DNA from: Candidatus Poribacteria bacterium | Lineage (GTDB): Bacteria; Poribacteria; WGA-4E; PCPOR2b | Assembly (NCBI GenBank): GCA_965207095.1 | Contig: CBDBMC010000001.1 | Location: 74,357 to 138,356 of the forward strand | DNA length: 64,000 bases | Reading direction: 5' to 3' | Position numbers and translations under genes: made by a program | Notes under the pieces: generated by a model | Seen by the model: only the letters and a program-made list of their open reading frames with translations | Told to the model about the DNA's origin: nothing | Databases searched by the model: none | In this document: in pieces, positions 1 to 52,928 of the stretch | How the letters are laid out: every line of letters begins with the position of its first letter | How positions within the stretch are numbered: position 1 is the first letter of the stretch

Positions 1-230
1 CGGTCCTCTTTAGAAAGTTGCTCACATGTCGCCCCGCTGGGGCTTAGGTTGTTTGTTTGTCCTGTATTCTATAAACATGTCGCCCCGCTGGGGCTTTGGG
101 TCTGTTTTAGGAGTAGGTGAAACGTCATCTTTTACCATTCTAAGGGCACAATCAACCGATTTTGAGAGTATTTACCCGTAAAATGATAACTTTCAGAGAT
201 TTGGATTTTTCAAACAGGTTCTTAGCAACT
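1..230. repeat. Composite REP-bearing element, family A (truncated by window edge); REP copies at 26-44 and 76-95
   Basis: About 250-bp unit recurring at 8248, 18132, 51233, 57257 and 62003. It holds two direct GTCGCCCCGCTGGGGC hairpin motifs separated by a conserved 31-nt spacer ending CTATAAAC, flanked by duplicated CTGTTTTAAGAGT..GAAACGGTCATCTT arms. Confidence 0.8.
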
Positions 231-276: not shown

Positions 277-3200
277 TTAGAATACCATCTTCTGCGTGGC
301 GGAATAGTCTCCTGCGGATAGGTGATAGAAGTAGACCCCGCTTGCTACCCCCTCACCGACGTTGTTTCTGCCATCCCAATAGATTGCTTTTGACCGACCC
401 TCGTAGACCGCTGCAATTCGATGCCCCACGTCGATTGTGCGGACGACCTGACCTGCTCCGTCATAGATGGTCAGGGTAACGAAAGCATCCTCTGCCAACC
501 GATACGGTATCCATGTCTCTGGATTGAACGGATTCGGATAATTTGCTAATAGTTCCGTCTCCGTCGGTATCTCGTAGGCAACCAATTCTGGTAACTGAAT
601 CAAACCCCATTTCACATCTTCAACTGTAACGGTATATCGCAACGGTTGCACACCGATGAGTGGATTGGGAGACCGAGCCGAGATTTCAAGGATATCGCCA
701 ACTGTAGCTGCGCGTCCTGTCTCTATATCAACGATGGCGGACCGATAACCGGCCGCATCGGGTGAGGTAACAGCAGCAACTGCACTGCGGGTTGAAAGGT
801 TCTTGACGGTTACTCGGAAGCTTTCTAACTTTAAGCCTGTTTCTTCGTCAACTATTGAACCGCTCAACCCCAAAATGGGTGTAACAGTATCCACTTCGAT
901 ACCCCGCATTACTACCGGTGACGCGGCAGCCATCGCGGAGGTATTATACCAGCCACTACCGGAGATAGCTACCGTTTCCTCTCGTAAAGTGGTCATGATA
1001 AAGGACTGTCCCCCGATGATTGCTATATCTGCAGAATCGCTTGTGGGATTAATCTGTTTGAACTCCCCGTTGTTATCTTGTGCCATAATCACAAGGACGT
1101 TATCTGCAATCCCTTCAAGAGTAAACAGGTTGCTCACATGGGTTATCCTTGAATCTCTCAACGGCACTCCCACAAGGTTGATACCGGGGTTTAGAGTGAT
1201 GATGCTGTTTCCATCTGTTCCGAGGCTGCTACCGCGCAGACGAAGCGGCACCGGGGTTATCAGATTGGTGATAATCCCCATATCATCAGTCAACTGTCTG
1301 TCAACGGGGGTGCTTCTGTCCGAGGGTTTGAGATAGCCAATCCATTGCTGAGTTTGGGAATTACGGGTGAAAAGGTAGATGACATTATCCTCGCTACCGA
1401 GTGCGTCGTAGAGGTCGCCGACCGATTCGATTGTCCCCGCTACTCCGTCAACCATCCTCACCTTCAACGGAACGTGAATCAAGCTGATACCTGATGGAAG
1501 AGCGAGATCAAATTCGAGTAGTTCAGCAACAGCATGAAAGGTCACAGTTTCAGCAATTCCTTCAACACTCACCCGAACTATGTTTGTGACAGGGTCGTTT
1601 CCAAGGGTCAGGGTACTTCGCGCTAAGCCGTTGGCATCACTGTCTACACTTGTCTCACTCAGCAAGCCTCCGCCTACGCTGGCAAGAAAGGTTACAGTAA
1701 CCCCTTCCATCGGGTCGTCGTACTGGTCGTGGACTTTTACGATGAAGGGTTGCATCAACGTCTCACCGGTCAACCCGATTTGATTATTGCCGGAAACGTA
1801 CTTCAGTGTCGTTGGTATCGGTAGTGGGGGAGTCGCCTCTGCACTAAAGAGTGCTGTTTGGGAAATACCTTCGGCACCGACTTTGACCACGTTCGTTCCT
1901 AGATTCGGTCCCAGCGTGAGGAGACTCTGTGCCCTACCATTGGCATCGGTTGTGGTGTTTGTCACACTGAGCGTACCACCGCCTGCAACAACAGCAAATG
2001 TGACCGAGCGCCCTGCGAGCGGAGAACCGTTTCCGTCCCTCGCTTCAACGACAAACATTTTTGCTAAAGTCTCATTAGGCATACCTTCCTGATTATCGCC
2101 TGAGATTTTCAATAGTTTTGATAGCGCAGATAGCGGCAATTGGTTGTATATGACTTCTGGGTCAAATAATATGGTTGAATCTTGACCCATTATAGCTAGC
2201 GTCATTCCATCAGGTGAAAATATGGGCCGTTTCCGAGCTGCAAAAATTTCAGAATCCAAGGTGGCAACAAATCTAGACGTTCTTGCATCCCAAACACTAA
2301 CCGAGCCACGACTTTCACGACTAGTACTTCTTAAAATCATCATTGAACTATCGGGTAAAAATGCCATAAAATCATTTCTATCAATAGTAGCCATGTCTCG
2401 CGTTATTAGATTCCATACCTTCACTCCTACATTTAATTTATGAAAAACAAGCATTGTTCCATCAGGCGAGAACGCTGCATAAGGACTATCACCGTCCAAG
2501 ATTTCAATGTTTTGTTTTGTGGCTATATCCCACAATCGAACAGTTTTGTCCCGTGATACAGAAGCAAGGGTATTCCCATCCGGCGAATATGTTATATGCC
2601 TAACTCCGTCTAGAGGTCCTCCCAATGTGGCGATAGGCTGCCCTGTTACAACATCCCATAATGTGATTATATGCCTCGTAGCCGATGCAAGCGTCTTTCC
2701 GTCAGGTGAAAACGCCCAATCTGCAACTGATGGATTTTCAATGATACCCGTCTGTGTTTGGGTTGGAACATCCCATAATCTGGTAAACTTTTCCCCACCG
2801 ACACGATACGCAAGTGTTCTCCCGTCCGGTGAAAACGATACAAGCCGAACATGGGAACTAGGCTTTACAGGAATAGTGGCAACATCTCTTCCTGTATTGA
2901 CCTCCCACACTTTTACGCCTCGAGTACCACCCGTTGCAAGCATGGTGCTATCAGGCGAGAACGATATAGGGGTCAATCCTATATGCCCTAAGTCAATAGT
3001 ATTGCCTGTGTTAATATCCCATACCTTTACAATATCATTCTGGGCATCAACAGTAAGAAAGGTCTTTCCATCTGGTGAAAAAACAATAGAGTTCATGTCA
3101 TAAACAGTAGGATCTTCATAAAGTGCAATAATGGACCGCGTTGTTACGTCCCACAAATGAATTGTATCAGGCGGAGAAGCCTCTATCCAAGCGAGTGTCT

Positions 3201-6003
3201 TTCCATCGGGCGAAAAAGCCACAGTCGAGATGCGCTCTGTCCTTCTAATCGTAAGGAGTTCTGTCCCTGTTATGGTATCCCACAATTTTACTGTGGCATC
3301 CCCTCCACCCGATGCAAGTATATTTTCAGTTGGTGAAAATGCGATAGAATTGACACGACCTGCATGCCCAAATGTATTTTTCAATTGACCTGTTAAGACA
3401 TCCCACACTCTTACTAATCCAGCCCACCCAGCACCAGCAATTAGAGCACCATCATGTGACACTGATATGGTATCAATAGTATCTTCAGAGTCCAGCCGTA
3501 CAAGCTCTTGCATTGTCACAATATCCCATAGTATTATTGTCCTTCCATCGGAGGACGCAATAGTTTTTCCATTGGGAGAAAATGCTACATGTCTACCAAT
3601 TCCTCCATCTGAACTAAAAGTAGTAATTTTTTCTTTTGTTACAATACTCCACACCTGATTCTGAATAAGCCCCTCCCGTGAGCTGCCAACAATGGCATTT
3701 CCATCGGGTGAAAATGCGATACTGTTCACAGGATATTGACTAGGAAGCAGCGCAACTTCCCTATAATTTACCGTATCATAAAGCCATATACCAGTACTGC
3801 TTGATACGGCGAGATATTGACCGTTGGACGAAAATGCTGCCGCCCTATCACTCCAGCCAGGACCTCCTTTGCCTATTCGGAATCTTGCTCTAGTTGGCAA
3901 ATTCCACGTTTGATACCTATTGCTTTCTCTTACTTCTTGTGTGCCTTCTAAAATTGTCACAGCTACCTTAGAACTATCCACTTGCTCTGTCGGTTCTTCC
4001 GAAAGGGTAAATTTTCTACGAGAAGATACATCCCCATTTATATCAACGGCTACAATAGAAATATCCTGTTGGGTATTCGTAGAAAGGCTAGTAAAACTGC
4101 TGCCTGGCACATCGCCATCATATTCAAATTTCACAACAACTTCCTTTTCGCCCATCAGGTGACGGCATGCTTTCACTTCCGGCAAACCAGCCGGAGCCAG
4201 TGAGCCTGCTGATGTAACAAAGAAGATAACTTGATGTATCCCTTGCGAATCAGCAACCTTAACTTGAATATCGACACTTTCTGATCCTGCTGGATACGTA
4301 GTTGATGAAGTCGATTTGATCGTTGGGGAACGCCCATTTTCAGTTGGAATATCAGGGTTGAAATAAGGACTTACCGACAAAAAATCAGCACTGCATTTGG
4401 ACAATCTATCTTGATCAGGCCCGTCACTAGGCGCTCGATTGTATCCCGCCCCATACGACATGATATATCCGCCGCTACGGAAATCGTGTTGTAGTCCAAA
4501 CGCGTGACCTATCTCATGAGCAGAGAGTTTATCATACCCCGGTTCGTTAGCCTCTATTCTGTCCTGAAAATGATGCGCAGGGATTAAGAGATTTCCACCA
4601 TTCTTTCCAGAACTCCCTGCATTAGCATTCACGCGGCTATTTCCAACTCCCGTACCAATACCATCAATGCTACTATCGACGACAATAAAGTAGATGTTTT
4701 GCCAAACATCAAATTCTTGTCGGACCTCAGTACGCACAGTGTTACCTGTATCGTCAACATAGTAAATCTCGGACTGTTGCCCATCCACACGATGTACCAC
4801 CGGCTTGCCTTGTGCATCACTTTCAATCTTGAAAGTCATATCATATCCATGCACCTTCATACTCTCGTTATAGAAGACTTGAACTCTGAGAATCTCATCT
4901 TTCATCCGCTGAACCACATTTTCACGATATGGACGGTCATTTGGTAAGAAGTAGATCAGCCGTACCGTGCGCGGTTCGCCGACGTTCCGCCCGCCAGCTA
5001 GAACGTCAACAGTGACTCCTCGATTCTGGAGGGTTGGGATATGGGTGCCGGAGGATGGAGAACTGAGAGGGTTTCCTCGCAGATAGACCATGTCTCCATT
5101 TCCCAATCCCGTATTTGCCACTAATGCTGATATATCCGATATCGAGTTGTCCACAACATACAGCGATGTCAGATTAGTCAAGCCCGAAACCGCTGATATA
5201 TCTGATACCCAGTTATACGGAAAATGCAGGTATGCCAGATTAGTCAAGCCCGAAACCGCCGATATGTCCGATACCAAGTTATACCCAAGATACAGCGATG
5301 TCAGCTTAATCAAGCCCGAAACCGCCGATATGTCCGATACCGAGTTGTTCCTGAGACTCAGGATTGTCAGATTAGTCAAGCCCGAAACCGCCGATATGTC
5401 CGATACCAAGTTATCCTGAAGATTCAGCGATGTCAACTGAGTTAAGTCTCCCAACGCTGATATATCTGATACCGAATTGTTTGAAAAGCCCAATGTTTTC
5501 AGGTGAGTCAAGTCCGAAACCGCCGATATATCTGATATGAAGTTATTCCCAAGATGCAGCAATGTCAGGTTGGTTAACCCCGACAATGATGTGATGTCCG
5601 AAATTGAGTTATTCCCAAGATGCAACGATCTCAGATTAGTCAAGCCCGAAACCGCCGATATATCTGATATGAAGTTCCACCCAAGATACAACGTTCTCAG
5701 GCTGGTTAACCCTGACAATGATGTGATGTCCGAAATCGAGTTGCGCCCAAGATACAGCGATATCAGGTTGATTGCATGTTCCAGCCCGGTCAAATCACTG
5801 ATGTTGGACTCTCTCGCTGTAAGACTTCTCAATGCTGCCATATCTGACGAGGTGATGGGATCACCTGACGCCTTGCCCAATTCCGCCATAATTGCAGCGC
5901 GGAGGTTGGGATCAGGGATGTCTACCGTTTGTGCGGTTGACGTTGACGGAATTGAGAGGAAAATCAACAGGATAAGGGTAAAACGATGAGCCGGTATTGT
6001 CAT
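277..6003 (-). CDS. Giant secreted mosaic protein: signal peptide, internalin-like LRRs, HEIGHAFGLQHD zinc-metalloprotease (metzincin-like) domain, WD40 beta-propeller repeats, Big (bacterial Ig-like) domains, shared DUF module, T9SS C-terminal sorting domain
   Basis: Single 1927-codon ORF; likely start at the internal ATG at 6003 (MTIPAHRFTLILLIFLSIPSTSTA signal) with GGGGAG SD. Motifs LxxLxLxxNxISDIS xN, HEIGHAFGLQHD (DNA at 4505-4519), repeated FSPDG..WD units, NYPNPFNPETWIPY...GVYFY tail (TIGR04183-like). Confidence 0.8.
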   Translation of the reverse strand: MTIPAHRFTLILLIFLSIPSTSTAQTVDIPDPNLRAAIMAELGKASGDPITSSDMAALRSLTARESNISDLTGLEHAINLISLYLGRNSISDITSLSGLTSLRTLYLGWNFISDISAVSGLTNLRSLHLGNNSISDITSLSGLTNLTLLHLGNNFISDISAVSDLTHLKTLGFSNNSVSDISALGDLTQLTSLNLQDNLVSDISAVSGLTNLTILSLRNNSVSDISAVSGLIKLTSLYLGYNLVSDISAVSGLTNLAYLHFPYNWVSDISAVSGLTNLTSLYVVDNSISDISALVANTGLGNGDMVYLRGNPLSSPSSGTHIPTLQNRGVTVDVLAGGRNVGEPRTVRLIYFLPNDRPYRENVVQRMKDEILRVQVFYNESMKVHGYDMTFKIESDAQGKPVVHRVDGQQSEIYYVDDTGNTVRTEVRQEFDVWQNIYFIVVDSSIDGIGTGVGNSRVNANAGSSGKNGGNLLIPAHHFQDRIEANEPGYDKLSAHEIGHAFGLQHDFRSGGYIMSYGAGYNRAPSDGPDQDRLSKCSADFLSVSPYFNPDIPTENGRSPTIKSTSSTTYPAGSESVDIQVKVADSQGIHQVIFFVTSAGSLAPAGLPEVKACRHLMGEKEVVVKFEYDGDVPGSSFTSLSTNTQQDISIVAVDINGDVSSRRKFTLSEEPTEQVDSSKVAVTILEGTQEVRESNRYQTWNLPTRARFRIGKGGPGWSDRAAAFSSNGQYLAVSSSTGIWLYDTVNYREVALLPSQYPVNSIAFSPDGNAIVGSSREGLIQNQVWSIVTKEKITTFSSDGGIGRHVAFSPNGKTIASSDGRTIILWDIVTMQELVRLDSEDTIDTISVSHDGALIAGAGWAGLVRVWDVLTGQLKNTFGHAGRVNSIAFSPTENILASGGGDATVKLWDTITGTELLTIRRTERISTVAFSPDGKTLAWIEASPPDTIHLWDVTTRSIIALYEDPTVYDMNSIVFSPDGKTFLTVDAQNDIVKVWDINTGNTIDLGHIGLTPISFSPDSTMLATGGTRGVKVWEVNTGRDVATIPVKPSSHVRLVSFSPDGRTLAYRVGGEKFTRLWDVPTQTQTGIIENPSVADWAFSPDGKTLASATRHIITLWDVVTGQPIATLGGPLDGVRHITYSPDGNTLASVSRDKTVRLWDIATKQNIEILDGDSPYAAFSPDGTMLVFHKLNVGVKVWNLITRDMATIDRNDFMAFLPDSSMMILRSTSRESRGSVSVWDARTSRFVATLDSEIFAARKRPIFSPDGMTLAIMGQDSTILFDPEVIYNQLPLSALSKLLKISGDNQEGMPNETLAKMFVVEARDGNGSPLAGRSVTFAVVAGGGTLSVTNTTTDANGRAQSLLTLGPNLGTNVVKVGAEGISQTALFSAEATPPLPIPTTLKYVSGNNQIGLTGETLMQPFIVKVHDQYDDPMEGVTVTFLASVGGGLLSETSVDSDANGLARSTLTLGNDPVTNIVRVSVEGIAETVTFHAVAELLEFDLALPSGISLIHVPLKVRMVDGVAGTIESVGDLYDALGSEDNVIYLFTRNSQTQQWIGYLKPSDRSTPVDRQLTDDMGIITNLITPVPLRLRGSSLGTDGNSIITLNPGINLVGVPLRDSRITHVSNLFTLEGIADNVLVIMAQDNNGEFKQINPTSDSADIAIIGGQSFIMTTLREETVAISGSGWYNTSAMAAASPVVMRGIEVDTVTPILGLSGSIVDEETGLKLESFRVTVKNLSTRSAVAAVTSPDAAGYRSAIVDIETGRAATVGDILEISARSPNPLIGVQPLRYTVTVEDVKWGLIQLPELVAYEIPTETELLANYPNPFNPETWIPYRLAEDAFVTLTIYDGAGQVVRTIDVGHRIAAVYEGRSKAIYWDGRNNVGEGVASGVYFYHLSAGDYSATQKMVF

Positions 6004-6294
6004 AGATTTTCTCCCCTGAAGCTGGAAACGTATATGGGACACTGGTATCTTGATGGTCATACCACCTACCCTATCTGGCTTGTGCCTCGCTGCCTCACCT
6101 GCTGACTTTCATTATCCCTACACGCCTAAGCTTTAGTAAGGACGACATGTGTATAAAGCACCAACCCAATGAACCAATAAACTAACAAAGTCCAGTAGGG
6201 TAATATGTAGTAGCTTCCCTTAATATAGGCTACTATAGGCAGTGTATCAGACTATAAACGGCGTGTCAAGTATGCCCTAGATGTTTTCTATCCT

Positions 6295-8247: not shown

Positions 8248-8497
8248 TTAGAGCCTGTTTTAAAAGTGAAACGGTCATCTTTAGGAAGTTCACATGTCGC
8301 CCCGCTGGGGCTTAGGTTGTTTGTTTGTCCCGTATTCTATAAACATGTCGCCCCGCTGGGGCTAAGAATCTGTTTTAAGAGTACGTGAAACGGTCATCTT
8401 TTGCCATTCTAGAGACACAATCAACCGATTTTGAGAGTATTTACCCGTAAACTGACAACTTTCAGAGATTATTTGGATTTTTCAAACAGGTTCTTAA
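8248..8497. repeat. Composite REP-bearing element, family A; REP copies at 8294-8312 and 8344-8363
   Basis: Same architecture as the copy at 1-230. Confidence 0.85.
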
Positions 8498-9997: not shown

Positions 9998-10097
9998 TCT
10001 CTTCCATCTCCTTTGCTCGCCTTAATCTCCGTTTAATCAAATCAATTTCCTCCCTGATAGGAAGAAACCAGAAACCGGGTCCGTCCCCGCAATCAAT
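9990..10097 (-). pseudogene. 3-prime remnant (about 35 codons) of a RelE/HigB-like toxin gene overlapping the antitoxin start
   Basis: Reading frame ...WFLPIREEIDLIKRRLRRAKEMEENE* ends on the ATGA of the antitoxin; an upstream in-frame TAA leaves no start; a second copy of the same tail is at 11746-11880. Confidence 0.45.
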
Positions 10098-10282
10098 TTA
10101 TAAATTGAATGCACGACATACAGAGTCTAACTATTTCTAGTACGCCGACTGTAATTTTTCGATAGCATCCCCTCACTATAATATATGGCTGTTTACACCG
10201 CAGCTTCAGTAGAGAATCATCTTGAGGAGGTATGAACACGAAGGTAAAAAATTTAGCAAGAAATTCTGAAAATAACCAGAGC

Positions 10283-10311
10283 TTGACAAAACTTCTATCC
10301 CACGTTACAAT
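10283..10311 (+). promoter_or_regulatory. Putative sigma70-type promoter TTGACA-17-TACAAT for the tandem-repeat protein gene
   Basis: TTGACA 10283-10288, TACAAT 10306-10311; AAAGGGG SD before the ATG at 10390. Confidence 0.45.
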
Positions 10312-10389
10312 AAGGGATTATGCTGAAAACATGGTGTTGTCACAGCCACCGCGATTCACATTTCAAAATATAAGAAAGGGGTAATAATA

Positions 10390-11079
10390 ATGCACGAATC
10401 AACCAATCATATCAACGCCGTCCTTGCAGCATCTGCACGTTTAGCCGCAGACTCTGAAAAGCTAACAGAACCCAGCAATCATACCAATGCCGTCCTTGCA
10501 ATATCTGCACGTTTAACCGCAGACTTTGAAAAACTAACAGAACCCAGCAATCATCTCAAGTCCGCTCTTGCAGCATCTGCACGTTTAACCGCAGACTTTG
10601 AAAAACTAACAGAACCCAGCAATCATCTCAAGTCCGCTCTTGCAATATCTGCAGCATGTCTCACCGCAGACCTCGAAAAACTAGGAGAATCCCGTAATCA
10701 TCTCAAGTCCGCTCTTGCAGTATCTGCACGTTTCGCCGCAGACCTTCAGAGACTAAGCGAACCCAGCAATCATCTCAAGTCCGCCCTTGCAGTATCTGCA
10801 GCATGTCTCACCGCAGACCTCGAAAAACTAGGAGAATCCCGTAATCATTTCAAATCTGCCCTTGCAGAATCTGCACGTTTCGCCGCAGACCTTCAGAAAC
10901 TAAGAAACCCCAACAATCATTTCAAATGTGCCCTTGCAGAATCTGCACGTGCCGCTGCGACCTCTGAAAAAGCGCAAGAGCATCGAAACAATTACGTCGA
11001 GACCAACTACAATCGCGACTTAGCTTATCAGGATAAAGAAGAACCTGTGGACATGCCATCGAAGATTATAACAAGGTAG
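10390..11079 (+). CDS. Hypothetical protein built of about 9 tandem 20-aa repeats (EPSNHLKSALAVSARFAADLQKLS)
   Basis: 60-nt period at DNA level over 10405-10960; AT-rich relative to flanks; good promoter and SD. Confidence 0.55.
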   Translation: MHESTNHINAVLAASARLAADSEKLTEPSNHTNAVLAISARLTADFEKLTEPSNHLKSALAASARLTADFEKLTEPSNHLKSALAISAACLTADLEKLGESRNHLKSALAVSARFAADLQRLSEPSNHLKSALAVSAACLTADLEKLGESRNHFKSALAESARFAADLQKLRNPNNHFKCALAESARAAATSEKAQEHRNNYVETNYNRDLAYQDKEEPVDMPSKIITR

Positions 11080-11231
11080 TAATATCTGCTTTGGAATTAG
11101 GTAAGAATCTTATTGGAAACGAGTTAGCTTTTTCTGCAGGAAATCAGGAAACTTCAAGCAACACTACGTATATTGAGCAAATAAACATCACATTTAATAT
11201 TAAACACCTAACCCAGGGAGAAAGCTTTGAA

Positions 11232-11600
11232 ATGAAATCTGAAATATCTAATAGCCAAGTAGGCGTGTTGAACACAGGAGAGATGCAAGCTAAATCAATA
11301 ACTGGAAGCGTCTCCCCTTCGGTTGATCCCAACCAACATCAGATAGCGGAAGCACTCACAAGTTTAACGGAAGCAGTAAAAGCCAGCCAAAACATCTCGT
11401 CACAACAACAAACGGAAATTATAGAGCAATTAGAATTACTTAATGAACAAGCTAAATTAGCACCCTCTGAACGAAAAGTAGGTCTTATCAAGCCTATCTT
11501 ATCCACACTTTCCACTGCTCTCAGTGCAGGAGGCGGAGCAGCTGAGATATGGTCTCAGTGCGGTGATGCAATAAAGATTTTCTTTGGTATTCACGAGTAA
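11232..11600 (+). CDS. Hypothetical S/Q/T-rich protein (start uncertain; may be the frameshifted continuation of the upstream gene)
   Basis: ORF open from 11037; first ATG at 11232 preceded by GGGAG; different frame from 10390-11079. Confidence 0.3.
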   Translation: MKSEISNSQVGVLNTGEMQAKSITGSVSPSVDPNQHQIAEALTSLTEAVKASQNISSQQQTEIIEQLELLNEQAKLAPSERKVGLIKPILSTLSTALSAGGGAAEIWSQCGDAIKIFFGIHE

Positions 11601-11674
11601 AATTCAATCAATTGACGGATCTGCTTGAATCCGCGTCATCTCTTAATCCGTGACAATCCGCGATTCAGACGGTA

Positions 11675-11880
11675 TCTTCATCAAGGCAGTTATATGAAAA
11701 CGTACCTAATGCCGCCATTGAGAGAATATTGCTCATAAGCCGCTCTCCATCTCCTTCGCTCGCCTTAATCTCCGCTTAACCAAGTCAATCTCCTTCTTGG
11801 GTGTACTTATCCCACGTTGAAATTTCTGTCGCATTTCAGCTGCGCCTTCCGATAAAGCCCCGGCGGGGTGACAGGTGTAT
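11675..11880 (-). pseudogene. Second degraded copy of the toxin tail plus first codons of the HigA-like antitoxin
   Basis: ...KKEIDLVKRRLRRAKEMESGL* overlapping ATGA with a 23-codon MSNILSMAAL.. fragment; same DNA as the 9990-10060 junction. Confidence 0.4.
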
Positions 11881-11992
11881 TATACCTCGCCGGTGTCCAC
11901 CCAATCGAAGACGTATTTTGGATTATACAGAAACATCAAAACGCTTCAGAAACTCAAGATTATTGCTACTCTGAAGGTCTGACAAGTGAATG

Positions 11993-12970
11993 ATGTAACT
12001 CTTGATTGTTAATATAACGCAAGTTGCTAGATGTTTATTTAATGATGAGTGTAATCATAGTGGCAATGAGAAACAAAACCACTTTAATCTCAAATCCAGC
12101 GGCAGTCACTGCATGAATAGAACGATGGTAGCCGTTGGGTGCATTAGACCGTTTGTCACCTCCACCCGCTTGCGATACTGATGGTGTAGGTAAACTTGCC
12201 ATCGGTTTATATTGACGCTTACTGTTTTTCTTACGCAACGGTTTGAGCATAATACCGGCTTGGGACAAAGCAGTCCTCAGAATCCCATAATTACAATAGG
12301 CTCTATCTGCATGAACAACCGCTCCCTGAGGCAAATCAAACGGATAACACCGCAACCCCATCACATCACCAAAACTGCCCGGTGTTAAGAAAAACTCAAC
12401 CGGCACACCACGCTCAGTGACCATCAGATGCAGTTTGAGTCCATAGAAGTATCTACGTTTACTGGTTATCTTACCGCGCCACTCTTTACCTTGATACAGT
12501 TTTGCACTAGAGATACGAATTGGGTCACATGCTGGAACGGGATACGAGTCAATAGCATAGATTTGATGTGAGTTTTGTGCTTTACAGTTAGCGGCTATAG
12601 ATTCAAAAAGTATCTGAAACATCGGTGCAATTTGATGGAGTCTGCGGTTGAATCGTGCTTTACTGAGCATATTGGGAATATATCCCTGTTCTTTGAGTAG
12701 GTGTCGTGCCAGCTGTTGATTGCCACCGAACAGTTCTGCTGCCACTAAGGCGGTGGTCATTACTTCTGCGGCAGACATTTTGGTTCGTGGGTCATCTTGA
12801 TATCCGTGTTGAATTAACAGATCGTCACAAAGTGTATAAAATGCTACGATGACTAAGTCCATGGGATTCTCCTGTTTATGAGGTTTGTTGTCGCTAACAA
12901 ATACTCTAACGGAAATTCCATGGATATTCAAATAGCAACTTGCGTTAATATAATGGACGACAGCATCCAA
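11993..12970. mobile_element. IS982-family insertion sequence with about 21-bp imperfect terminal inverted repeats (TTAATATAACGCAAGTTGCTA)
   Basis: Left TIR 12009-12029, right TIR 12933-12953 in inverted orientation; single DDE transposase ORF inside; inserted into the RAYT gene. Confidence 0.75.
12035..12862 (-). CDS. IS982-family DDE transposase
   Basis: 275 aa from ATG 12862; N-terminus MDLVIVAFYTLCDDLL... is the typical IS982 start (ΦΦCxVDDF motif). Confidence 0.75.
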   Translation of the reverse strand: MDLVIVAFYTLCDDLLIQHGYQDDPRTKMSAAEVMTTALVAAELFGGNQQLARHLLKEQGYIPNMLSKARFNRRLHQIAPMFQILFESIAANCKAQNSHQIYAIDSYPVPACDPIRISSAKLYQGKEWRGKITSKRRYFYGLKLHLMVTERGVPVEFFLTPGSFGDVMGLRCYPFDLPQGAVVHADRAYCNYGILRTALSQAGIMLKPLRKKNSKRQYKPMASLPTPSVSQAGGGDKRSNAPNGYHRSIHAVTAAGFEIKVVLFLIATMITLIIK

Positions 12971-13297
12971 CTGAGAATGTACATACGAGAACGCTGCAGT
13001 AAGCCTCCCTGCCATTCAAATCTACCGACAACCGCATCCCTTTCTGTTAATCCATTTTGACGAATTTGTTTTGATATCTCTCACCAAGTCAGAAATCGCA
13101 ATGTCGGGTGTGATACCTACAAGGATATGAAGGTGATCTGGCATTGAATTAATCCGAATTACTGTCTGCTTTTTATGGGTGATAATGCGGGTAACATATT
13201 GGTGAAGTGCCTCTTTGTGCTGTTTGGGAATGAGGGATTGCCTGCCTTTGACAGCAAAAATAATGTGTATGTAAAGTTGGGTATAGGTATCAGCCAT
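12958..13297 (-). pseudogene. REP-associated tyrosine transposase (RAYT / IS200-like Y1 TnpA), frameshifted and truncated by the IS982 insertion
   Basis: MADTYTQLYIHIIFAVKGRQ...MPDHLHILVGI...SSKWINRK then a +1 shift into ...GRFEWQGG (RAYT KFEWQEGYGAFS motif) which runs into the IS982 TIR; REP doublet immediately 5-prime. Confidence 0.7.
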
Positions 13298-13315
13298 GAC
13301 TTTTGTGTGGGTCAC

Positions 13316-13385
13316 CTGTCGCCCCGCTGGGGCTTGGGAGATTTTGTTATCCCGTGTGCTCAATAAACATATCGCCCCGCTGGGG
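13316..13385. repeat. REP doublet (GTCGCCCCGCTGGGGC x2, 34-nt spacer ending AATAAAC) abutting the RAYT 5-prime end
   Basis: Copies at about 13316-13333 and 13367-13385. Confidence 0.85.
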
Positions 13386-13604
13386 CTATGTTGGTTCATT
13401 AGTCCATCAGTTTATTGGTGCAATTAATGAACCTTTGAGGCTACAGCATATTAATTTGAATCCCAAGCATCGGGATGGCGTATGCCTATCACTAACACCT
13501 TGGTTTCTATAGATTCGTGCTCATTCGTGCAGATTCACGGACGCCTTACGCCCTCTTCTTACCTGAACTTCCGTGACGTTGTTTCGTGCAGGATTGGTTC
13601 ACCT

Positions 13605-13672
13605 GTCGCCCCGCTGGGGCTTTCATTACTAGGGGATTTCACTTTTCTATAAACATGCCGCCCCGCTGGGGC
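13605..13672. repeat. REP doublet
   Basis: Copies at about 13605-13621 and 13655-13672, spacer ends CTATAAAC. Confidence 0.85.
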
Positions 13673-13847
13673 TAAATACACTAAAAATTCAGGGGGCAGC
13701 AGCCATCGTAGGGGCTTGGTTTCCAAGCCCATCGGGTTGGGTTACCCAACCCCTACGCCTCTCGCCCTCTCGTTTTTCCGTCTTCTCCGCTTTCCTCCGT
13801 GTTCTCCGTATAATCTTCTCAATCCGCGATTCAGACAAAAAGTCCAG

Positions 13848-15572
13848 CTATTTTCTGTGCCCTGACCGCAATCTTTCGGTTTCCGTCTCGTCCACCGTCC
13901 AACTCTTCCGATCAATCACTACACGGTAGACCGCCCGCGCCCGCTCAAGGCTCACCTTCCCCTCATGCACATCCCGCAGCACCAACTGCGGATCCCGTTC
14001 CGCAGCGGGACCGTATCCACCACCCCCACACGACTGCACCCGCACCATATCCCCCGGCTTCAGTTGGACGGTAACTTTTGAGCCAAGCTTGGTCGCTTCA
14101 GCGTCGGGGTTGAGTGTGTAACGCGCAATCTCTCCGTCCTCGCCGCCGAAAAGCCCCCAAGGTCCCCACTTGTCCCGATCCGCCAAGATAGTGAACGAAA
14201 CCTCATGGTCAAAGCAATAATCCCGCTGCAACCCAAGCCCACCGCGATATTTTCCTGCGCCGTCCGAATCATCGACCAACTCGTAACGGGCGATGTGTAC
14301 CGGGTAATTGATCTCCGTCTCTTCAATGGGTGCGTTCTCGGTGTTCTGCCCGTGACACTGCACCGCATCGGGTCCATCGCTGGCAACGCGCCCACCGTAT
14401 CCGCCAGCCATCGTCTCGTAATAGGCGTACAGCTCACCCGTGCGCGGCGAGGTGCCCCCGAACCCCATCTGGCACATCATCGCTTTTGTTCCGGCTGGAA
14501 TGCGGTCAGGGATGGCGGGCGCAAGCGCTTTGAGCAGGACATCGTTCAGCCGAATCTGCGTCTCCCAGCCACCGACGACAGGGAATGGCGGGGCGCAGTT
14601 GACCACTGTGCCTAGCGGTGCATCTATCTGAACCAACCGGTAGAAACCCGCGTTGACAGGTATATCGGGGTCGATCAGGCTTTTTAGGACATAGGCGCAG
14701 GCGGAAAAGGTCTGGGCATAGGTGGAGTTGACGGGTGCCCGCCGTTGGGGTTCGGAACCGTTCAGATCGAAAAGTACACCATCGTCATTGATGACTAATT
14801 TCCCCACAAGGTGCACCGGCTCATCGGTGTAGCCGTCGTTGTCGACATAGCCGTCGGCGGTGAAGACCCCTTGGGGCAGCTTGGCAATTTCTGCGCGTGT
14901 CCGACGCTCTGTATAGGCGAGCAGTTGGTCGATATAGAAGCTAACCGTTTCGGCTCCCATCCGATCGAGCAGCGCGGTCAACCGGCGCACCCCGGTATTG
15001 TTGGAAGCGACCTGCGCTCGAAAGTCGCCCGCGGTCTCGTGTTTGGATCGGATCTGTGCCAACACAAGCCGAAAAACGTCCGGATCAATCTCCCCGCCCT
15101 CCACCATCTTCACGGCAGAGATGATGACCCCCTCCTGAAAAACCTCACGGAACGCCCCGATACTCGCGGGCGCACCGCCGCCTACGTCCACATGGTGCGC
15201 GAGGTTAGCGACATAGCCGAAAAGTTCGTCCTTGTAATATACGGGTGATATAAGGGTGATGTCGTTGAGGTGGACGCCGCCGAGATAGGGATCGTTGGAG
15301 AGAATCGCGTCGCCGGGACCTAAGTTCTCCGGTCCGTATTCCCGGATAACCCGCGGGACAGACTGAGAGAGAGAGCCGAGATGTACTGGCTGCGTGAATG
15401 ACTGCGCGACAGGCTGCAATTCCCTGTCGAAGAAGGCGCACGAGAAATCGGCGCGGGTCTTGATGTTGGTCGAATAGGCGCTACGGCGGAGTGCGATGGT
15501 CATCTCCTCCGTAGCCTCGATCAGCGCATTACGGATAACTTCAAACTTGATTGGATCGAATGTTGGGCTCAT
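13848..15572 (-). CDS. Hydantoinase B / oxoprolinase-family protein (HyuB-like), paralog 1
   Basis: 574 aa; DPIKFEVIRNALIEATEEMTIALRRSAYSTNIKTRADFSCAFFD...HLGSL matches PF02538. Confidence 0.85.
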   Translation of the reverse strand: MSPTFDPIKFEVIRNALIEATEEMTIALRRSAYSTNIKTRADFSCAFFDRELQPVAQSFTQPVHLGSLSQSVPRVIREYGPENLGPGDAILSNDPYLGGVHLNDITLISPVYYKDELFGYVANLAHHVDVGGGAPASIGAFREVFQEGVIISAVKMVEGGEIDPDVFRLVLAQIRSKHETAGDFRAQVASNNTGVRRLTALLDRMGAETVSFYIDQLLAYTERRTRAEIAKLPQGVFTADGYVDNDGYTDEPVHLVGKLVINDDGVLFDLNGSEPQRRAPVNSTYAQTFSACAYVLKSLIDPDIPVNAGFYRLVQIDAPLGTVVNCAPPFPVVGGWETQIRLNDVLLKALAPAIPDRIPAGTKAMMCQMGFGGTSPRTGELYAYYETMAGGYGGRVASDGPDAVQCHGQNTENAPIEETEINYPVHIARYELVDDSDGAGKYRGGLGLQRDYCFDHEVSFTILADRDKWGPWGLFGGEDGEIARYTLNPDAEATKLGSKVTVQLKPGDMVRVQSCGGGGYGPAAERDPQLVLRDVHEGKVSLERARAVYRVVIDRKSWTVDETETERLRSGHRK

Positions 15573-18131: not shown

Positions 18132-18385
18132 TTAGAGCCTGTTTTAAAAGTGAAACGGTCATCTTTAGGAAGTTGTTCACATGTCGCCCCTCTGGGGCTT
18201 AGGTTGTTTATTTGTCCTGTATTCTATAAACATGTCGCCCCGCTGGGGCTAAGCATCTGTTTTAAGAGTAGATGAAACGGTCATCTTTTGCCATTCTAGG
18301 GGCACAATCAACCGATTTTGAGAGTATTTACCCGTAAAATGACAACTTTCAGAGATTATCCCGATTTATCGGGACAGGTTCTTAG
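18132..18385. repeat. Composite REP-bearing element, family A; REP copies 18181-18200 (variant GCCCCTCTGGGGC) and 18232-18250
   Basis: As other family A copies. Confidence 0.85.
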
Positions 18386-19351: not shown

Positions 19352-20092
19352 CTATTGGTCCTTCAAATAGTCGTAGACAATCTGTGCGTATCCCTCGGAG
19401 TAGCTGCTCTCCATGTAGAAGGCATCGCCATATTTCAGCGGCGATAGCGGAGTGAGATCACACAACGGGGAAGCGCCGAGGATAATCCTGCCCTGCCCCT
19501 TCGCGGTGAAATGCACCTCTAGATCTTGGGCCGTTTCGGTGCAATCGATTAACTGTTTGATGGCAGGACCCGGACCATCCGCTCGCGGGATAACCTTCAA
19601 CCGCCACGCAGGGGTTAAGGCGGGCATCGCATTGTGGGAAACAACAGTTTCCATGCTGGAACTGATATTTAGCACCGGCACACCGCCGAGCGTGGTCTCC
19701 GTAACCATGCACCGATCCGCTTGCGTCACCTTTAACCCCGCGTACACCTTCGGTGTTCCGTAAATTTCTCTGCCCGCAGCGATACCAGCAGGGCCGTCAT
19801 GAAAGACATGGGAACAGTAAAATCCGGTCTGATCCCTGAAACGGCACTTCATCACAATAAAAGATTCTTGGAAGGGACCATAGTTTGTGCAGAAGGGCAC
19901 CTCTAAGCCCGAAGCCACGCACAGTCCGTCCTCTGCGGCTTCCAGAGGTTCGGGGAGAAAGGCTTGGACGGCGGTGGGATCGGCCTGAAAAAAAACAAAC
20001 TGAAACCGCACATTCCGATAGACCGCTGGCAGCGACGGATAAAAGGGGTTGTCCGCGGGTATATTCCAGCCGTCATCGTGTTTAAGTCCCAT
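19352..20092 (-). CDS. Acetoacetate decarboxylase (ADC)-family protein
   Basis: 246 aa from MGLKHDD; LPEPLE..., GIAAGREIYGTPKVYAG (Lys-containing active-site segment) and C-terminal AQIVYDYLK closely match Adc; start overlaps upstream hyuB paralog by 11 nt. Confidence 0.8.
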   Translation of the reverse strand: MGLKHDDGWNIPADNPFYPSLPAVYRNVRFQFVFFQADPTAVQAFLPEPLEAAEDGLCVASGLEVPFCTNYGPFQESFIVMKCRFRDQTGFYCSHVFHDGPAGIAAGREIYGTPKVYAGLKVTQADRCMVTETTLGGVPVLNISSSMETVVSHNAMPALTPAWRLKVIPRADGPGPAIKQLIDCTETAQDLEVHFTAKGQGRIILGASPLCDLTPLSPLKYGDAFYMESSYSEGYAQIVYDYLKDQ

Positions 20093-21839
20093 GATCAGAA
20101 TCCTCTCCTGCACCGGCGCGCAGCTTCGCAGTCTCCGCTTCATCCACTGTCCATGACTGAGTATCTACCGCAACTTTATAAATCTCTCGCGCCCGTCCAA
20201 GGCTCACCTTGCCCTCGCGCACGTCGCGGCATACCATAGCCGGATCGCGTTCTTCGGGGCGCCCGTAACCGCCACCGCCGCATGTGCGGTAGCTCATGAT
20301 TTCCCCCGGCTTGAGTTGGACGGTCACTTTGGAACTGAGTTCGACAGGATCTGTGTCGGGATTCAGGATGTAGCTTGCCTTGAGACCCGGTTGCCCACCG
20401 AACAGTCCCCACGGTCCCCACCGATCCCGATCTGCCAAGATAGTGAAGGACGGTTCATGGTCGAGAAATTCGTAATCGCGTCGTAGGCCTAGTCCACCGC
20501 GATGCTTGCCCGCACCATCGGAATCATCGACCAGCTCGTAGCGCGTGATCCGCACCGGGTAGTTCGTTTCAGTCTCCTCAATAGGCGCATTCTCGGTGTT
20601 CTGTCCGTGTGTCTGCACGGCGTCGGGACCGTCGCTGGCGATCCGCCCGCCAAATCCACCCGCCATCGTCTCCAAGAAGCAGTAATACTCCCCTGTACGC
20701 GGGTCTGCTCCACCAAAACCGGCGTGGCACATCATGGCTTTCGTACCCGCTGGCACCCGCTCTGGCATCACCGGCGATAGCGCCTTGAACATCACGTCGA
20801 TCAGCCGGGTCTGTGTCTCCCATCCGCCCACGACTGGCGCAGGCGGCAGGCTATTGACCACCAATCCTTCAGGAGCGAGCATCCGCACAAATCCGTAAAA
20901 TCCTGCGTTTGTCGGTATGTCGGGATCGATTAAACACTTGAGGACGTACGCACAGCCGGAGAAGGTCTGGGCATACGTGGAGTTCACCGGTGCTCGCCGT
21001 TGCGGGTCACAGCCGGTGAGATCAAAGAACATACCGTCCTCGTCAACCACCATCTTCGCGACAAGGTGTACCGGTTCATCGGTAAAGCCGTCGGTATCAA
21101 CATAACCGTCGGCGGTGAAGACACCGTGCGGCAGCTTAGCGACCTCTGCCCGGGTCCGCCGCTCTGCATAAGCGATTAGTTCGTCGATGTAGAAAGTAAA
21201 GGTTTCTGCCCCCATCCTATCCATAATCGCGCTTAACCGGCGCATCCCGGTGGTATTCGCCGCCACCTGTGCCCGAAAGTCGCCGCCCGTTTCGCGCTTC
21301 GATCGAATCTGCGATAGCACCAACCGAAAGATGTCGGCCCGCATCTCTCCCCCATGCACCAACTTCACAGGCGGGATGATGACCCCTTCTTGGTAGACCT
21401 CCCGGAACGCGCCGACACTCGCCGGTGCACCGCCACCTACATCGACATGATGGGCGACATTAGCGACATAGCCGAACGGTTCGTCGTTGTAGTAGACAGG
21501 CGTAATCAGGGTGATGTCGTTCAGATGCCCGCCGCCTCCATACGGGTCGTTGACCAAAAGTGTATCGCCCGGTCCGATGTTTTCAGCCCCGTAGTCGCTG
21601 ATAGCCTTCGGGACCAATTCAACCAACGATCCTAAGTGGGTGGGTTGACCGAAGGATTGCACCACCAACCGCAGCTGGCGATCGAAAAATGCACAGGAAA
21701 AGTCCGCACGGGTCTTGATGTTGGTCGAATACGCGCTACGGCGCAGGGCGATAGTCATTTCCTCGGTTGCTTCTAACAACGCATTGCGGATAACTTCAAA
21801 TGTGATTGGATCAACTCGGTCCGGGTTTTGCACTGACAT
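20082..21839 (-). CDS. Hydantoinase B / oxoprolinase-family protein (HyuB-like), paralog 2
   Basis: 585 aa; about 70% identical to paralog 1 by eye. Confidence 0.85.
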   Translation of the reverse strand: MSVQNPDRVDPITFEVIRNALLEATEEMTIALRRSAYSTNIKTRADFSCAFFDRQLRLVVQSFGQPTHLGSLVELVPKAISDYGAENIGPGDTLLVNDPYGGGGHLNDITLITPVYYNDEPFGYVANVAHHVDVGGGAPASVGAFREVYQEGVIIPPVKLVHGGEMRADIFRLVLSQIRSKRETGGDFRAQVAANTTGMRRLSAIMDRMGAETFTFYIDELIAYAERRTRAEVAKLPHGVFTADGYVDTDGFTDEPVHLVAKMVVDEDGMFFDLTGCDPQRRAPVNSTYAQTFSGCAYVLKCLIDPDIPTNAGFYGFVRMLAPEGLVVNSLPPAPVVGGWETQTRLIDVMFKALSPVMPERVPAGTKAMMCHAGFGGADPRTGEYYCFLETMAGGFGGRIASDGPDAVQTHGQNTENAPIEETETNYPVRITRYELVDDSDGAGKHRGGLGLRRDYEFLDHEPSFTILADRDRWGPWGLFGGQPGLKASYILNPDTDPVELSSKVTVQLKPGEIMSYRTCGGGGYGRPEERDPAMVCRDVREGKVSLGRAREIYKVAVDTQSWTVDEAETAKLRAGAGEDSDHGT

Positions 21840-22065: not shown

Positions 22066-22321
22066 TAGTTGACAAACCTGTAAGTCAAAATTCATGTCTC
22101 GACAACTGCTTATGCCATGATCACAGGTTAGGCAACCTGTGTCTACAAAAGACGGTGATCCTAAAGCAGTAACCTTTGGTGCTAGCTTAGTGAGATTTTT
22201 TTTACATTGTTCAAGTCGCTTTGGATCCCCCCGATAAACCGGGGTAAACTAATTATCGGGGAGTTCATGGGTTCATTAGTCGGTTGGTTGATTTATTCTT
22301 ATGTTCCCCCTTCGGATACAC

Positions 22322-22391
22322 ATGTCGCCCCGCTGGGGCTTGGCTGTATGTGTGATATCCATATTCTATAAACATGTCGCCCCGCTGGGGC
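22322..22391. repeat. REP doublet
   Basis: GTCGCCCCGCTGGGGC at 22322-22340 and 22373-22391. Confidence 0.85.
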
Positions 22392-22554
22392 TAAATGAAC
22401 CGCTGAACCAATAACTTTTACGTTTCACGCATCATGTGTCACGTTATCGACAGCTGCAAACTAGCACCATTGGTTGGTAGGCATATTCCGTATGCCGTAA
22501 CCCGTGTACAAATTACGTCACGACGCAACGCACCCATTAAATTGCACCAATGGG

Positions 22555-47811: not shown

Positions 47812-47950
47812 AAGTTGCTAATTAGCCTGTAGGTCGCCTTTCCACACTCGCCACGAATTAGACTCACTGAAGTCACGAATGCACATGCTAATTAGCCTGT
47901 AGGTCGCCTTTCCACACTCGCCACGAATTAGACTCACTGAAGTCACGAAT
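47812..47950. repeat. 1.8 copies of a 76-bp tandem duplication (CTAATTAGCCTGTAGGTCGCC...)
   Basis: Perfect 63-nt identity between 47812-47874 and 47888-47950. Confidence 0.85.
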
Positions 47951-48017
47951 CGCCCGCTGGGGCTTGGTGCGTGTAGGAATTCACTGCTGCTATAAACATG
48001 TCGCCCCGCTGGGGCTT
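47949..48017. repeat. REP doublet (first copy degenerate)
   Basis: 47949-47965 and 47998-48017. Confidence 0.75.
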
Positions 48018-48022
48018 TAAAA

Positions 48023-48082
48023 CTGTAGGTCGAGATTCACATCTCGACACAAAACCGTCGATTTCGGAAAATCGACCTACAG
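48023..48082. repeat. 60-nt palindromic hairpin element family E (CTGTAGGTCGAG...CGACCTACAG)
   Basis: Seen directly; related to 16854-16911. Confidence 0.7.
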
Positions 48083-51232: not shown

Positions 51233-51485
51233 TAAGAGCCTGTTTTAAAAGTAAAACGGTCATCCTTAGAAAGGTGTTCACATGTCGCCCCGCTGGGGCT
51301 TGGGTTGTTTGTTTATCCTGATTCTATAAACATGTCGCCCCGCTGGGGCTAAGAGTCTGTTTTAAGAGTAGGTGAAACGGTCATCTTTTGCCATTCTAGG
51401 AGCACAATCAGCCGATTTTGAGAGTATTTGCCCGTAAAATGAGAACTTTCAGAGATTATCCCGATTCATCGGGACAGGCTCTAAT
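51233..51485. repeat. Composite REP-bearing element, family A; REP copies 51292-51310 and 51342-51360
   Basis: As other family A copies. Confidence 0.85.
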
Positions 51486-52897: not shown

Positions 52898-52928
52898 TCC
52901 ACCATAGTTTATCAACTAGCAACTTGCG

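Follow-up and report, generated by a model that had tools for sequence, protein, structure and literature searches.

A Y1/HUH gene interrupted by an IS982-family element, and the dispersed mini-hairpins around it: a probable REPtron-like locus in a Poribacteria-like chromosome

In a 64-kb stretch of a Candidatus Poribacteria contig (CBDBMC010000001.1, positions 74,357 to 138,356; hereafter the window), a gene for a Y1/HUH transposase homolog is broken by an insertion sequence (IS) and lies beside short hairpins that recur across the window. The initial annotation described a system of repetitive extragenic palindromic (REP) sequences and their REP-associated tyrosine transposase (RAYT), in which the enzyme was dead while the repeats remained numerous. 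This raises the question of what kind of enzyme the gene encodes, how it relates to the hairpins and why they persist. We conclude that the locus, in a Poribacteria-like chromosome, is likely REPtron-like and was inactivated recently; it works like a REPtron, yet its enzyme lies outside the RAYT clade.

The minus-strand open reading frame (ORF) of the Y1 gene starts at 13297 with MADTYTQLYIHIIFAVKGRQ, runs through MPDHLHILVG and SSKWINRKG, and stops at 13022. As first described, this is an IS200-like Y1 ORF in which HLHILV and SSKWIN share one frame and FEWQGG lies in a second; AFSYVHSQLDAVVHYIN is back in the first. The joined translation covers the Pfam domain Y1_Tnp (PF01797) over its full length (86 bits). 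On the 3' side of the IS the translation resumes from 12016 downward to a stop at 11880, with the segments NNQELHH, QTFR, LEFLKRFDV and YNPKYVFDW scattered over three frames. Because translation continues beyond the IS, the gene is interrupted, and not truncated at the IS as had been supposed. A single frameshift had also been reported; it is present in the sequence as the first of six insertion events totalling 8 nt (13034, 12998-13000 (2 nt), 11984-11985, 11968, 11961 and 11933), the reality of these small frameshifts being a matter for the reads. Aligned at the DNA level with three intact ortholog coding sequences, the gene shows 42-49 substitutions, 8 inserted bases and 0 deletions. When the IS, one copy of its target-site duplication (TSD) and the 8 nt were deleted in silico, an intact 157-aa ORF was restored that ends at the usual place and carries DHLH, FEWQ and YINNQELHH, i.e. 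all motifs of the family, with synonymous and non-synonymous counts resembling those among intact paralogs.

The interrupting element was correctly assigned to the IS982 family: its transposase scores 137.9 bits against the IS982 model NF033520 (cutoff 130), and close homologs in Candidatus Poribacteria bear the NCBI name IS982 family transposase. Its ends had been given as 21-nt terminal inverted repeats (TIRs) at 12009-12029 and 12933-12953, which resolve into a 7-bp direct TSD, TAATATA, and a true TIR of 13 bp (Table 1). IS982 elements have TIRs that begin with AC and TSDs of 3-9 bp (ISfinder description), which the 7-bp TSD fits. The duplicated target, TAT-ATT-A on the coding strand, comprises a Tyr codon and an Ile codon of the Y-x3-Q motif and one further base. 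In alignment, this Tyr matches the region of ISDra2 TnpA around the catalytic tyrosine (KYIESQ); judged from this alignment, the IS is inserted at the predicted catalytic Tyr-Ile codons. The Y1 copy in the window is thereby inactivated by a second mobile element, as had been claimed, and a knockout of this kind is an ordinary event. Because an independent copy of the IS on a metagenome contig (L129), with the same ends, also has TAATATA on both sides, the shared flanks suggest a target preference. The 64-kb window holds no second IS982 copy beyond 22 nt at 52912-52933 that resemble an IS end. Sequences like the right end, TAGCAACTTG(C/G)GT, stand alone there and at 223-234 of the window, as well as on contigs L127 (~2090-2125), L128 (~2090-2115) and L129 (~497-516). 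One of them lies beside a copy of a repeat resembling a miniature inverted-repeat transposable element (MITE), one abuts the intact L129 IS, and others are found 3' of Y1 paralogs, immediately past their 3' REPs; on L127, right-end-like and left-end-like sequences stand 7 nt apart, possibly the footprint of an excision or else a miniature derivative.

The damage to the Y1 gene looks recent, because the IS is ~99.6% identical to the intact L129 copy and the gene is without substitution decay. Compared with L129, the IS has 3 substitutions, 7 inserted bases (12280-12281, 12272, 12202, 12142, 12125 and 12031) and 0 deletions. Its transposase ORF is open but out of frame over ~12125-12202 (~27 aa), where WQVYLHHQYRKRVEVTN, a conserved segment common to all homologs, is displaced; a second local shift of frame lies at 12272-12281. 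An intact transposase, considered on the basis of 100% query coverage by homologs of 273-275 aa, was rejected when residue-level alignment showed the out-of-frame segment; the DDE transposase of this copy is thus not intact, provided the inserted bases are real.

Of the 15 small indel bases seen relative to intact references, 8 lie in the Y1 gene and 7 in the IS; all are insertions, with 0 deletions, mostly outside homopolymers. Decay of bacterial pseudogenes is normally deletion-biased, and an insertion-only pattern is unlike it; the bases are either very recent real mutations or a local assembly artefact, a question of which the IS insertion is independent. A substantial possibility, if not quite an even one, is that the IS insertion alone is real and the 15 bases are consensus errors of the long-read metagenome assembly, the proposed cause being that a strain-variable IS insertion left few supporting reads. 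In that case the Y1 gene would have no true frameshifts and the IS transposase would be intact. Besides the excess of insertions over deletions and its departure from natural decay, such errors would account for the clustering of the bases at the two IS ends (11933-12281 and 12998-13034, with none in 12282-12945) with almost no substitution decay, for the 7 bases added to an IS with merely 3 substitutions, and for a Y1 gene that is free of stop codons and of any non-synonymous excess once the insertions are removed. Against an artefact, long ORFs nearby are unbroken and the members of adjacent ORF pairs are each a complete gene of their own, so that errors are not general in this assembly; the same sequence has also been deposited publicly (P0121, 100% identity). 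Of the four insertion clusters, three total multiples of 3, leaving the ORF open, which mildly favours real, selected mutations, although by our own arithmetic the chance of such a pattern is ~1 in 10.

The best protein matches to the Y1 gene are 157 aa long. An intact ortholog (P0002) comes immediately after hyuB, just as the window gene does, on seven contigs from three samples (L001-L007), and another (P0004) occupies the same hyuB-adjacent place on a 3.56-Mb contig from a fourth sample (L126); the flanking genes of these relatives share 85-89% DNA identity with those of the window. One relative's contig carries three Y1 paralogs, 89-90% identical as proteins and flanked by the same hairpin. 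On these contigs the gene thus shows low copy number, no near-identical duplicates and a conserved chromosomal position. No second Y1 gene was found in the 64-kb window, and no tnpB near the Y1 gene in the window or at the ortholog loci. Because one relative's contig has three paralogs, more Y1 copies are likely outside the window, and the source genome probably holds further paralogs predicted to have the same REP specificity. On the 5,082,957-bp source contig, the cluster listings showed no paralog. Upstream of the P0002 start codon, L001-L007 carry respectively 2, 3, 3, 2, 3, 8 and 4 tandem REP units (~2590-3000) with a period of 51-52 bp (Tandem Repeats Finder, TRF: period 51, 7.4 copies, 96% matches); strain-level change of the array beside the intact gene is rapid. 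On the other side of the gene, window 10052-11800 compared with L001 3480-5280 lacks the 363-aa gene that in relatives separates the HTH_37 gene from the Y1 gene. Two ORFs stand in its place, and one of them (10390-11079) consists of tandem repeats of 72/147 nt (TRF score <=708), which encode SNHLKSALA.SAR..ADLEKL units.

The hairpin repeats themselves are far too frequent for chance: the 15-mer core CGCCCCGCTGGGGCT has 18 matches in the window at 0-1 mismatch and 20 at up to 2, with 0.15 cited as the chance expectation in both cases. Degenerate copies included, there are 21 plus-strand units in 11 arrays (nine doublets spaced 50-53 nt, one triplet and one single unit) and one degenerate minus-strand unit. 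Doublets of the same hairpin had been reported at further loci and are indeed present, with the corrections that the hairpin is of 13 nt, not 16 (5-bp stem, 3-nt loop, -4.8 kcal/mol as DNA), and that not every array is a doublet. The doublet said to adjoin the Y1 gene is confirmed (Table 1), and to it we add the degenerate unit in inverted orientation at the 3' end of the gene. Units follow the pattern 5'-CTAyAAAnA-TGTC-[5-bp GC stem]-[3-4-nt loop]-[stem]-T; in doublets, unit 1 is preceded by (T/A)CAC(A/C)TGTC and unit 2 by TATAAACATGTC or a near variant. All units are intergenic and, apart from the Y1 3' flank, all 21 have the TGTC-hairpin-T form on the plus strand, among genes of both strands (the unit at 62057 was judged by its flanks). 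Cumulative GC skew declines steadily across the 64-kb window, and the uniform orientation may be a replication-strand bias as in IS200/IS605 elements; across 54 Poribacteria 8-kb tiles, REP orientation showed no correlation with local GC skew (23 vs 30 of 53 informative), a weak test as local skew follows gene orientation. An Rfam scan of the whole window returned no family.

The hairpin being near-palindromic, two head-to-tail units can pair as single-stranded DNA into a 12-bp interrupted stem that encloses the spacer (-12.4 and -14.1 kcal/mol, z ~ -2.4, for doublets such as 8290-8363 and 13312-13388), a pairing like that of REP doublets forming hairpins (REPINs) despite the direct orientation of the units. 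When empty and filled sites were compared for the doublet between the Y1 gene and hyuB (against L001 and L126), the intergenic DNA proved too diverged, with what seems to be a decayed remnant in the relatives. Two Hydantoinase_B paralogs (13848-15572 and 20082-21839, same strand, 4.5 kb apart) are each followed, a few hundred bases past the 3' end, by a REP doublet. At the doublet with a degenerate first unit, that unit (47951) is directly abutted by a perfect tandem duplication of 70 nt (47816-47950; 1.9 copies, 100% identical), and a 12-nt inverted repeat (CTGTAGGTCGA... / ...TCGACCTACAG) lies downstream at ~48024-48082.

The same arrangement recurs around the gene family. The orthologs and the three paralogs have at least 2 antisense units (GCCCCAGCGGGGC-GACAGGTG) upstream and one or two sense units downstream; inverted copies of the dispersed hairpin flank the gene in the window, in orthologs and paralogs, in other phyla and at metagenome loci. 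An exact 18-mer scan of species-representative genomes matched mainly Poribacteria metagenome-assembled genomes, and also Hymenobacter, Spirosomataceae, Planctomycetota, Acidobacteriota and others; with ~17 chance matches expected in the collection by our own arithmetic, singletons are weak proof. At seven of the 18-mer loci a Y1 homolog (37-78% identity) stands beside the match and shares the layout, variant stems being often present in the vicinity, and in Hymenobacter, Spirosomataceae, Gimesia and Acidimicrobiia contigs the 18-mer abuts Y1 homologs of 37-52% identity.

Eighty metagenome loci, gathered by protein similarity alone (47-63% identity), were searched with a strict hairpin definition ([TG][GA][TC]C, a 5-bp GC-rich stem and a 3-4-nt loop). 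Hairpins in the expected orientation numbered 37 upstream (antisense) and 49 downstream (sense), compared with 16 upstream and 12 downstream in the opposite orientation (86 vs 28); the 35.6 kb of coding sequence contained 0, and shuffled flanks a mean of 0.18. At least one expected-orientation hairpin was present at 39 of the 80 loci, and on both sides at 22. Conservation extends outside the search pattern, with A at -5 in 90% and T at +1 in 96% of units and an A-rich box, CTAyAAAnA; the tag consensus is (T/G)(G/A)(T/C)C with A before it. Units picked by the 5' box alone had a perfect 5-bp stem in 22 of 26 cases. Over 15 distinct units, 98.7% of stem cells were paired, with compensatory changes at three of the five pairs (the middle pair occurs as U-A, C-G, G-C and A-U); 0 of 500 shuffles scored as high and no slid register came close, in a test mildly biased by assigning each unit its best-pairing loop length. 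Taken together, these sequence comparisons say that the hairpin repeat is tied to the Y1 gene family. Literature searches for the hairpin sequences, for REPtrons and for RAYTs in these phyla found no prior description.

Part of the local REP population has a second association. Six copies (198-249 bp) of a MITE-like repeat of 245-250 bp, all on the plus strand and 91-98% identical to their own consensus, have imperfect TIRs (AGAGCCTGTTTTAAAA / TTTTCAAACAGGTTCT, 88% complementary) and a left end that is duplicated internally. They contain 11 of the 21 plus-strand units, five copies holding a doublet and the copy at 62006 one unit. The full element seems specific to the source genome, other Poribacteria loci having the doublet core only, and no target duplication was resolvable from the flanks of the copies. 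The REP units within it may have multiplied as passengers.

Table 1. Positions of the Y1 gene, the IS982-family element and the repeats within the window
Feature	Position	Strand	Basis or remark
Y1/HUH pseudogene (by sequence IS200-like, TnpAY1 subclass 1.2 type)	11880..13297	-	PF01797 domain; alignment to syntenic orthologs P0002/L001 and P0004/L126
Y1 pseudogene parts	5' part 12953-13297; 3' part 11880-12016	-	IS982 element between
IS982-family insertion sequence, 929 bp	12017..12945	-	NF033520 match; perfect 13-bp TIRs
IS TIRs ACGCAAGTTGCTA / TAGCAACTTGCGT, 13 bp, perfect	12017-12029 and 12933-12945		Inverted-repeat search
TSD TAATATA, left copy	12010..12016	.	Single copy kept gives ...DAVVHYINNQELHH in frame
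TSD TAATATA, right copy	12946..12952	.	Minus strand = TAT ATT A
IS transposase ORF, 275 aa	12035..12862	-	Protein alignment to 273-aa homologs P0122, P0125, P0131, P0140, P0192; DNA alignment to L129
REP doublet, units TCACCTGTC-GCCCCGCTGGGGC-T and AAACATATC-GCCCCGCTGGGGC-T, 53 nt apart	13312..13388	+	Just upstream of Y1 start, antisense to gene; same around intact orthologs and paralogs
Degenerate single REP TACACCTGTC-ACCCCGCCGGGGC-T, 2 changes from core	11855..11879 (hairpin 11857-11869)	-	Y1 3' end, sense; matches intact 3' REP of L001
Second REP doublet, between Y1 gene and hyuB	13599..13674	+	
REP doublet in MITE-like copy (1-222, cut by window start)	22..95	+	
Free-standing REP doublet	22318..22392	+	
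REP doublet, unit 1 degenerate (GCCC-GCTGGGGC)	47942..48016	+	
Three-unit REP array: stems GCCCC (4-nt loop), GCCCC, variant GCTCC/GGAGC	57005..57119	+	
MITE-like copy, cut by window start	1..222	+	Doublet 22-95
MITE-like repeat	8250..8494	+	REP doublet 8290-8363
MITE-like repeat	18134..18382	+	REP doublet 18177-18250
MITE-like repeat	51235..51482	+	REP doublet 51278-51350
MITE-like repeat	57259..57506	+	REP doublet 57302-57375
Shorter MITE-like copy	62006..62203	+	Single REP unit GCCCCGCCGGGGC (62058-62070)

What the enzyme is was judged from the intact ortholog P0002 and the family alignment. P0002 passes the IS200/IS605 model NF033573 (71.4 bits, cutoff 55) and has the Y-x3-Q motif; the nearest solved structures are those of ISDra2 and IS608 (2XM3, 2A6M) and a Sulfolobus TnpA, with E = 9e-16 for ISDra2 TnpA. 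The tyrosine motif is YI(K/N)NQE(A/L)HH, not the Y-x3-NP of RAYTs. Invariant positions in the alignment are D54, H55, H57, W95, Q96, Y115, Q119, H122 and H123; the proteins have 149-157 aa, and their tail is conserved at F128, E131, L136, Y143, Y147 and F149. The hairpins lack the GT[AG]G 5' foot of RAYT-type REPs and instead have a TGTC-type tag preceded by A. The signature of TnpAY1 subclass 1.2 (DHxH, WQ, Y-x3-Q-x2-HH, length and a tail of ~30 aa) is present, as judged from the published motif description, and the behaviour of IS200/IS605 elements (near-identical non-syntenic copies, end hairpins in the same orientation, tnpB) is absent. By its sequence we therefore class the protein as IS200-like, of the TnpAY1 subclass 1.2 type, and not as a member of the RAYT clade. 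The test proposed at the outset, a better match to IS200/IS605 TnpA accompanied by tnpB, came out half one way and half the other: the match is better (71 vs 31 bits) and tnpB is missing. The REP/RAYT-type arrangement first described holds up, with inverted copies of a dispersed hairpin on both sides of the gene, no tnpB and a conserved chromosomal site; the naming of the protein as a RAYT does not.

In the mechanism that we propose, the Y1/HUH protein would be a single-stranded DNA endonuclease/transposase homolog whose gene is chromosomal and vertically inherited between hyuB and downstream genes. By analogy with TnpA of IS608 and ISDra2 and with E. coli TnpAREP, it would recognise the hairpin and its conserved 5' tag on single-stranded DNA, and would then cut and rejoin at the hairpin, such that units are copied or amplified. 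The copy in the window is dead through the entry of the IS982-family element into its TAT-ATT-A target, plus the six small insertions as assembled. Numerous REPs beside a dead enzyme had been presented as a puzzle, which loses its force here: REPs would remain because the inactivation is recent, because paralogs, of which one relative has three, are probably present elsewhere, and because about half of the local units sit in a MITE-like element that may be able to spread them by another route.

We infer both the catalytic mechanism and the role of the enzyme as mover of the repeats. Several observations weigh against this interpretation. Judged by sequence, the protein is a TnpA of the IS200/IS605 type and not a curated RAYT: P0002 reaches 31.0 bits against the curated RAYT model NF047646 (REP_Tyr_transpos; cutoff 80), and E. 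coli TnpAREP was not detected in the PDB search. Subclass 1.2 is entered as 'REP: no' in PMC6006769, and under the strict definition 41 of the 80 metagenome loci have no hairpin. Paralogs in the source genome are deduced from relatives only, the change in array copy number could come from slippage or recombination instead of the enzyme, and the small insertions may be assembly errors.

If the Y1 gene were instead an autonomous IS200-family copy hit by a second IS, its adjoining hairpins would be its left and right ends, and the dispersed ones would be unrelated or solo ends. The family match to NF033573 as top hit, the ISDra2 and IS608 structures, the class 1 Y-x3-Q motif and the three copies on one relative's contig all speak for this, and still we hold it to be very unlikely. 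In genomes 11-15% apart at the DNA level the gene keeps its site beside hyuB, the identity of its paralogs is well below the ~99% of IS copies (PMC6006769 Table 1), the flanking hairpins are mutually inverted, contrary to IS200/IS605 ends, 21 hairpin units stand against one gene per 64 kb, and there is no tnpB. Slimmer still, in our estimate, is the chance that the hairpins serve the host in regulation, as terminators or mRNA stabilisers, or are mere parts of MITE-like elements, next to a Y1 gene by coincidence. Every unit is intergenic, as this would have it, and the 11 plus-strand units in the MITE-like element could have been spread by a DDE transposase. However, hairpins accompany the gene family in several phyla under a fixed rule of orientation, an association that is absent in shuffles and coding sequence; the conserved 5' box and 3' T go beyond the needs of a simple terminator, the hairpin is not followed by a T-run, and the Rfam scan of the window found no family.

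A REPtron-like locus remains the reading we prefer. A broader claim, to which we incline only slightly, is that subclass 1.2 constitutes a second, class 1 lineage of REP-associated enzymes, with a pan-phylum mini-REP in gene-adjacent, expanding head-to-tail arrays. If true, this would give subclass 1.2 a function and an assayable substrate (candidate sequence TATAAACATGTCGCCCCGCTGGGGCT), and REP-type domestication would have arisen or persisted outside the Y-x3-NP RAYT clade. An IS200-like clade listed as REP-free appears to own a covarying mini-hairpin in Poribacteria, Bacteroidota, Planctomycetota and Actinobacteriota, and the REP/RAYT concept would be widened in three ways, to class 1 enzymes, to very short hairpins and to head-to-tail arrays. 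The locus would also provide natural material on the fate of REPs once one copy of the enzyme is lost, with intact and broken alleles at one locus and an array length that varies between strains.

Elsewhere in the window, 66/132-nt tandem repeats (5129-5770; up to 8.5 copies, 70-85% matches) lie within a 1927-aa ORF (277-6060).

Set beside known systems, the interrupting element resembles the IS982 family in its length (~0.93 kb), single ORF, transposase score above the NF033520 cutoff, and TIRs with a short TSD, and differs in that its transposase, as assembled, is out of frame over a conserved R-x3-E segment. The hairpins share a (C/T)GTC tag at one end of the palindrome with the CGTC-tagged palindromic repeats of Di Nocera et al. 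2013 (PMC3733652), for which no dedicated transposase was found. Those repeats have 8-9-bp stems starting with A/T, 4-5-nt loops, a CCA tail and mostly head-to-head dimers; the differences in the length and composition of the stem and in the type of dimer led us to reject an identification of the window hairpin with them.

IS200/IS605 TnpA proteins (IS608, ISDra2; subclass 1.1) are closest in sequence and by solved structures, with HUH and Y-x3-Q motifs, and the window enzyme presumably acts, as they do, on hairpins in single-stranded DNA; unlike them, the window gene is syntenic across species, is not multi-copy or near-identical and has inverted flanking hairpins, with an implied hundreds-fold excess of hairpins over genes. 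The 'IS200 Group 3' of Bertels, Gallie & Rainey 2017 (PMC5581495), RAYT-like in having no duplicates, no plasmid copies and flanking 16-mers abundant in the replicon, may, when compared by description, be the same clade; that study did not describe the Group 3 repeat itself. Quentin, Siguier, Chandler & Fichant 2018 (PMC6006769) place subclass 1.2 near IS200 transposases but without IS properties, chiefly in Cyanobacteria and Bacteroidetes, with proteins of ~148 aa and a conserved C-terminal tail of ~30 aa. The window family shares the DH[IV]H-like HUH, WQ and YIKNQ..HH motifs, the length of ~150 aa, the low copy number and the non-IS behaviour, and departs from the published account in having cognate mini-hairpins at its genes and in occurring also in Poribacteria, Planctomycetota, Actinobacteriota and others. 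The REP search in PMC6006769 demanded a GT[AG]G foot and would miss TGTC-tagged hairpins; the flanking hairpins contradict the REP-free description of the subclass, not membership in it.

The E. coli-type REPtron (TnpAREP/RAYT of class 2, e.g. subclass 2.2, with its REPs, bacterial interspersed mosaic elements (BIMEs) and REPINs) differs from the window locus in its enzyme, that of the window being of class 1 (Y-x3-Q-x2-HH, not Y-x3-NP) and below the cutoff of the RAYT model. It also differs in its repeats, which in the window are tiny hairpins (5-bp stem, 3-4-nt loop) tagged A-TGTC instead of GT[AG]G and set head-to-tail with a 50-53-bp period instead of in inverted REPIN/BIME pairs. The two are alike in having a low-copy, chromosomal, vertically inherited Y1/HUH gene without tnpB, flanked by inverted copies of an intergenic dispersed hairpin that forms arrays beside the gene.

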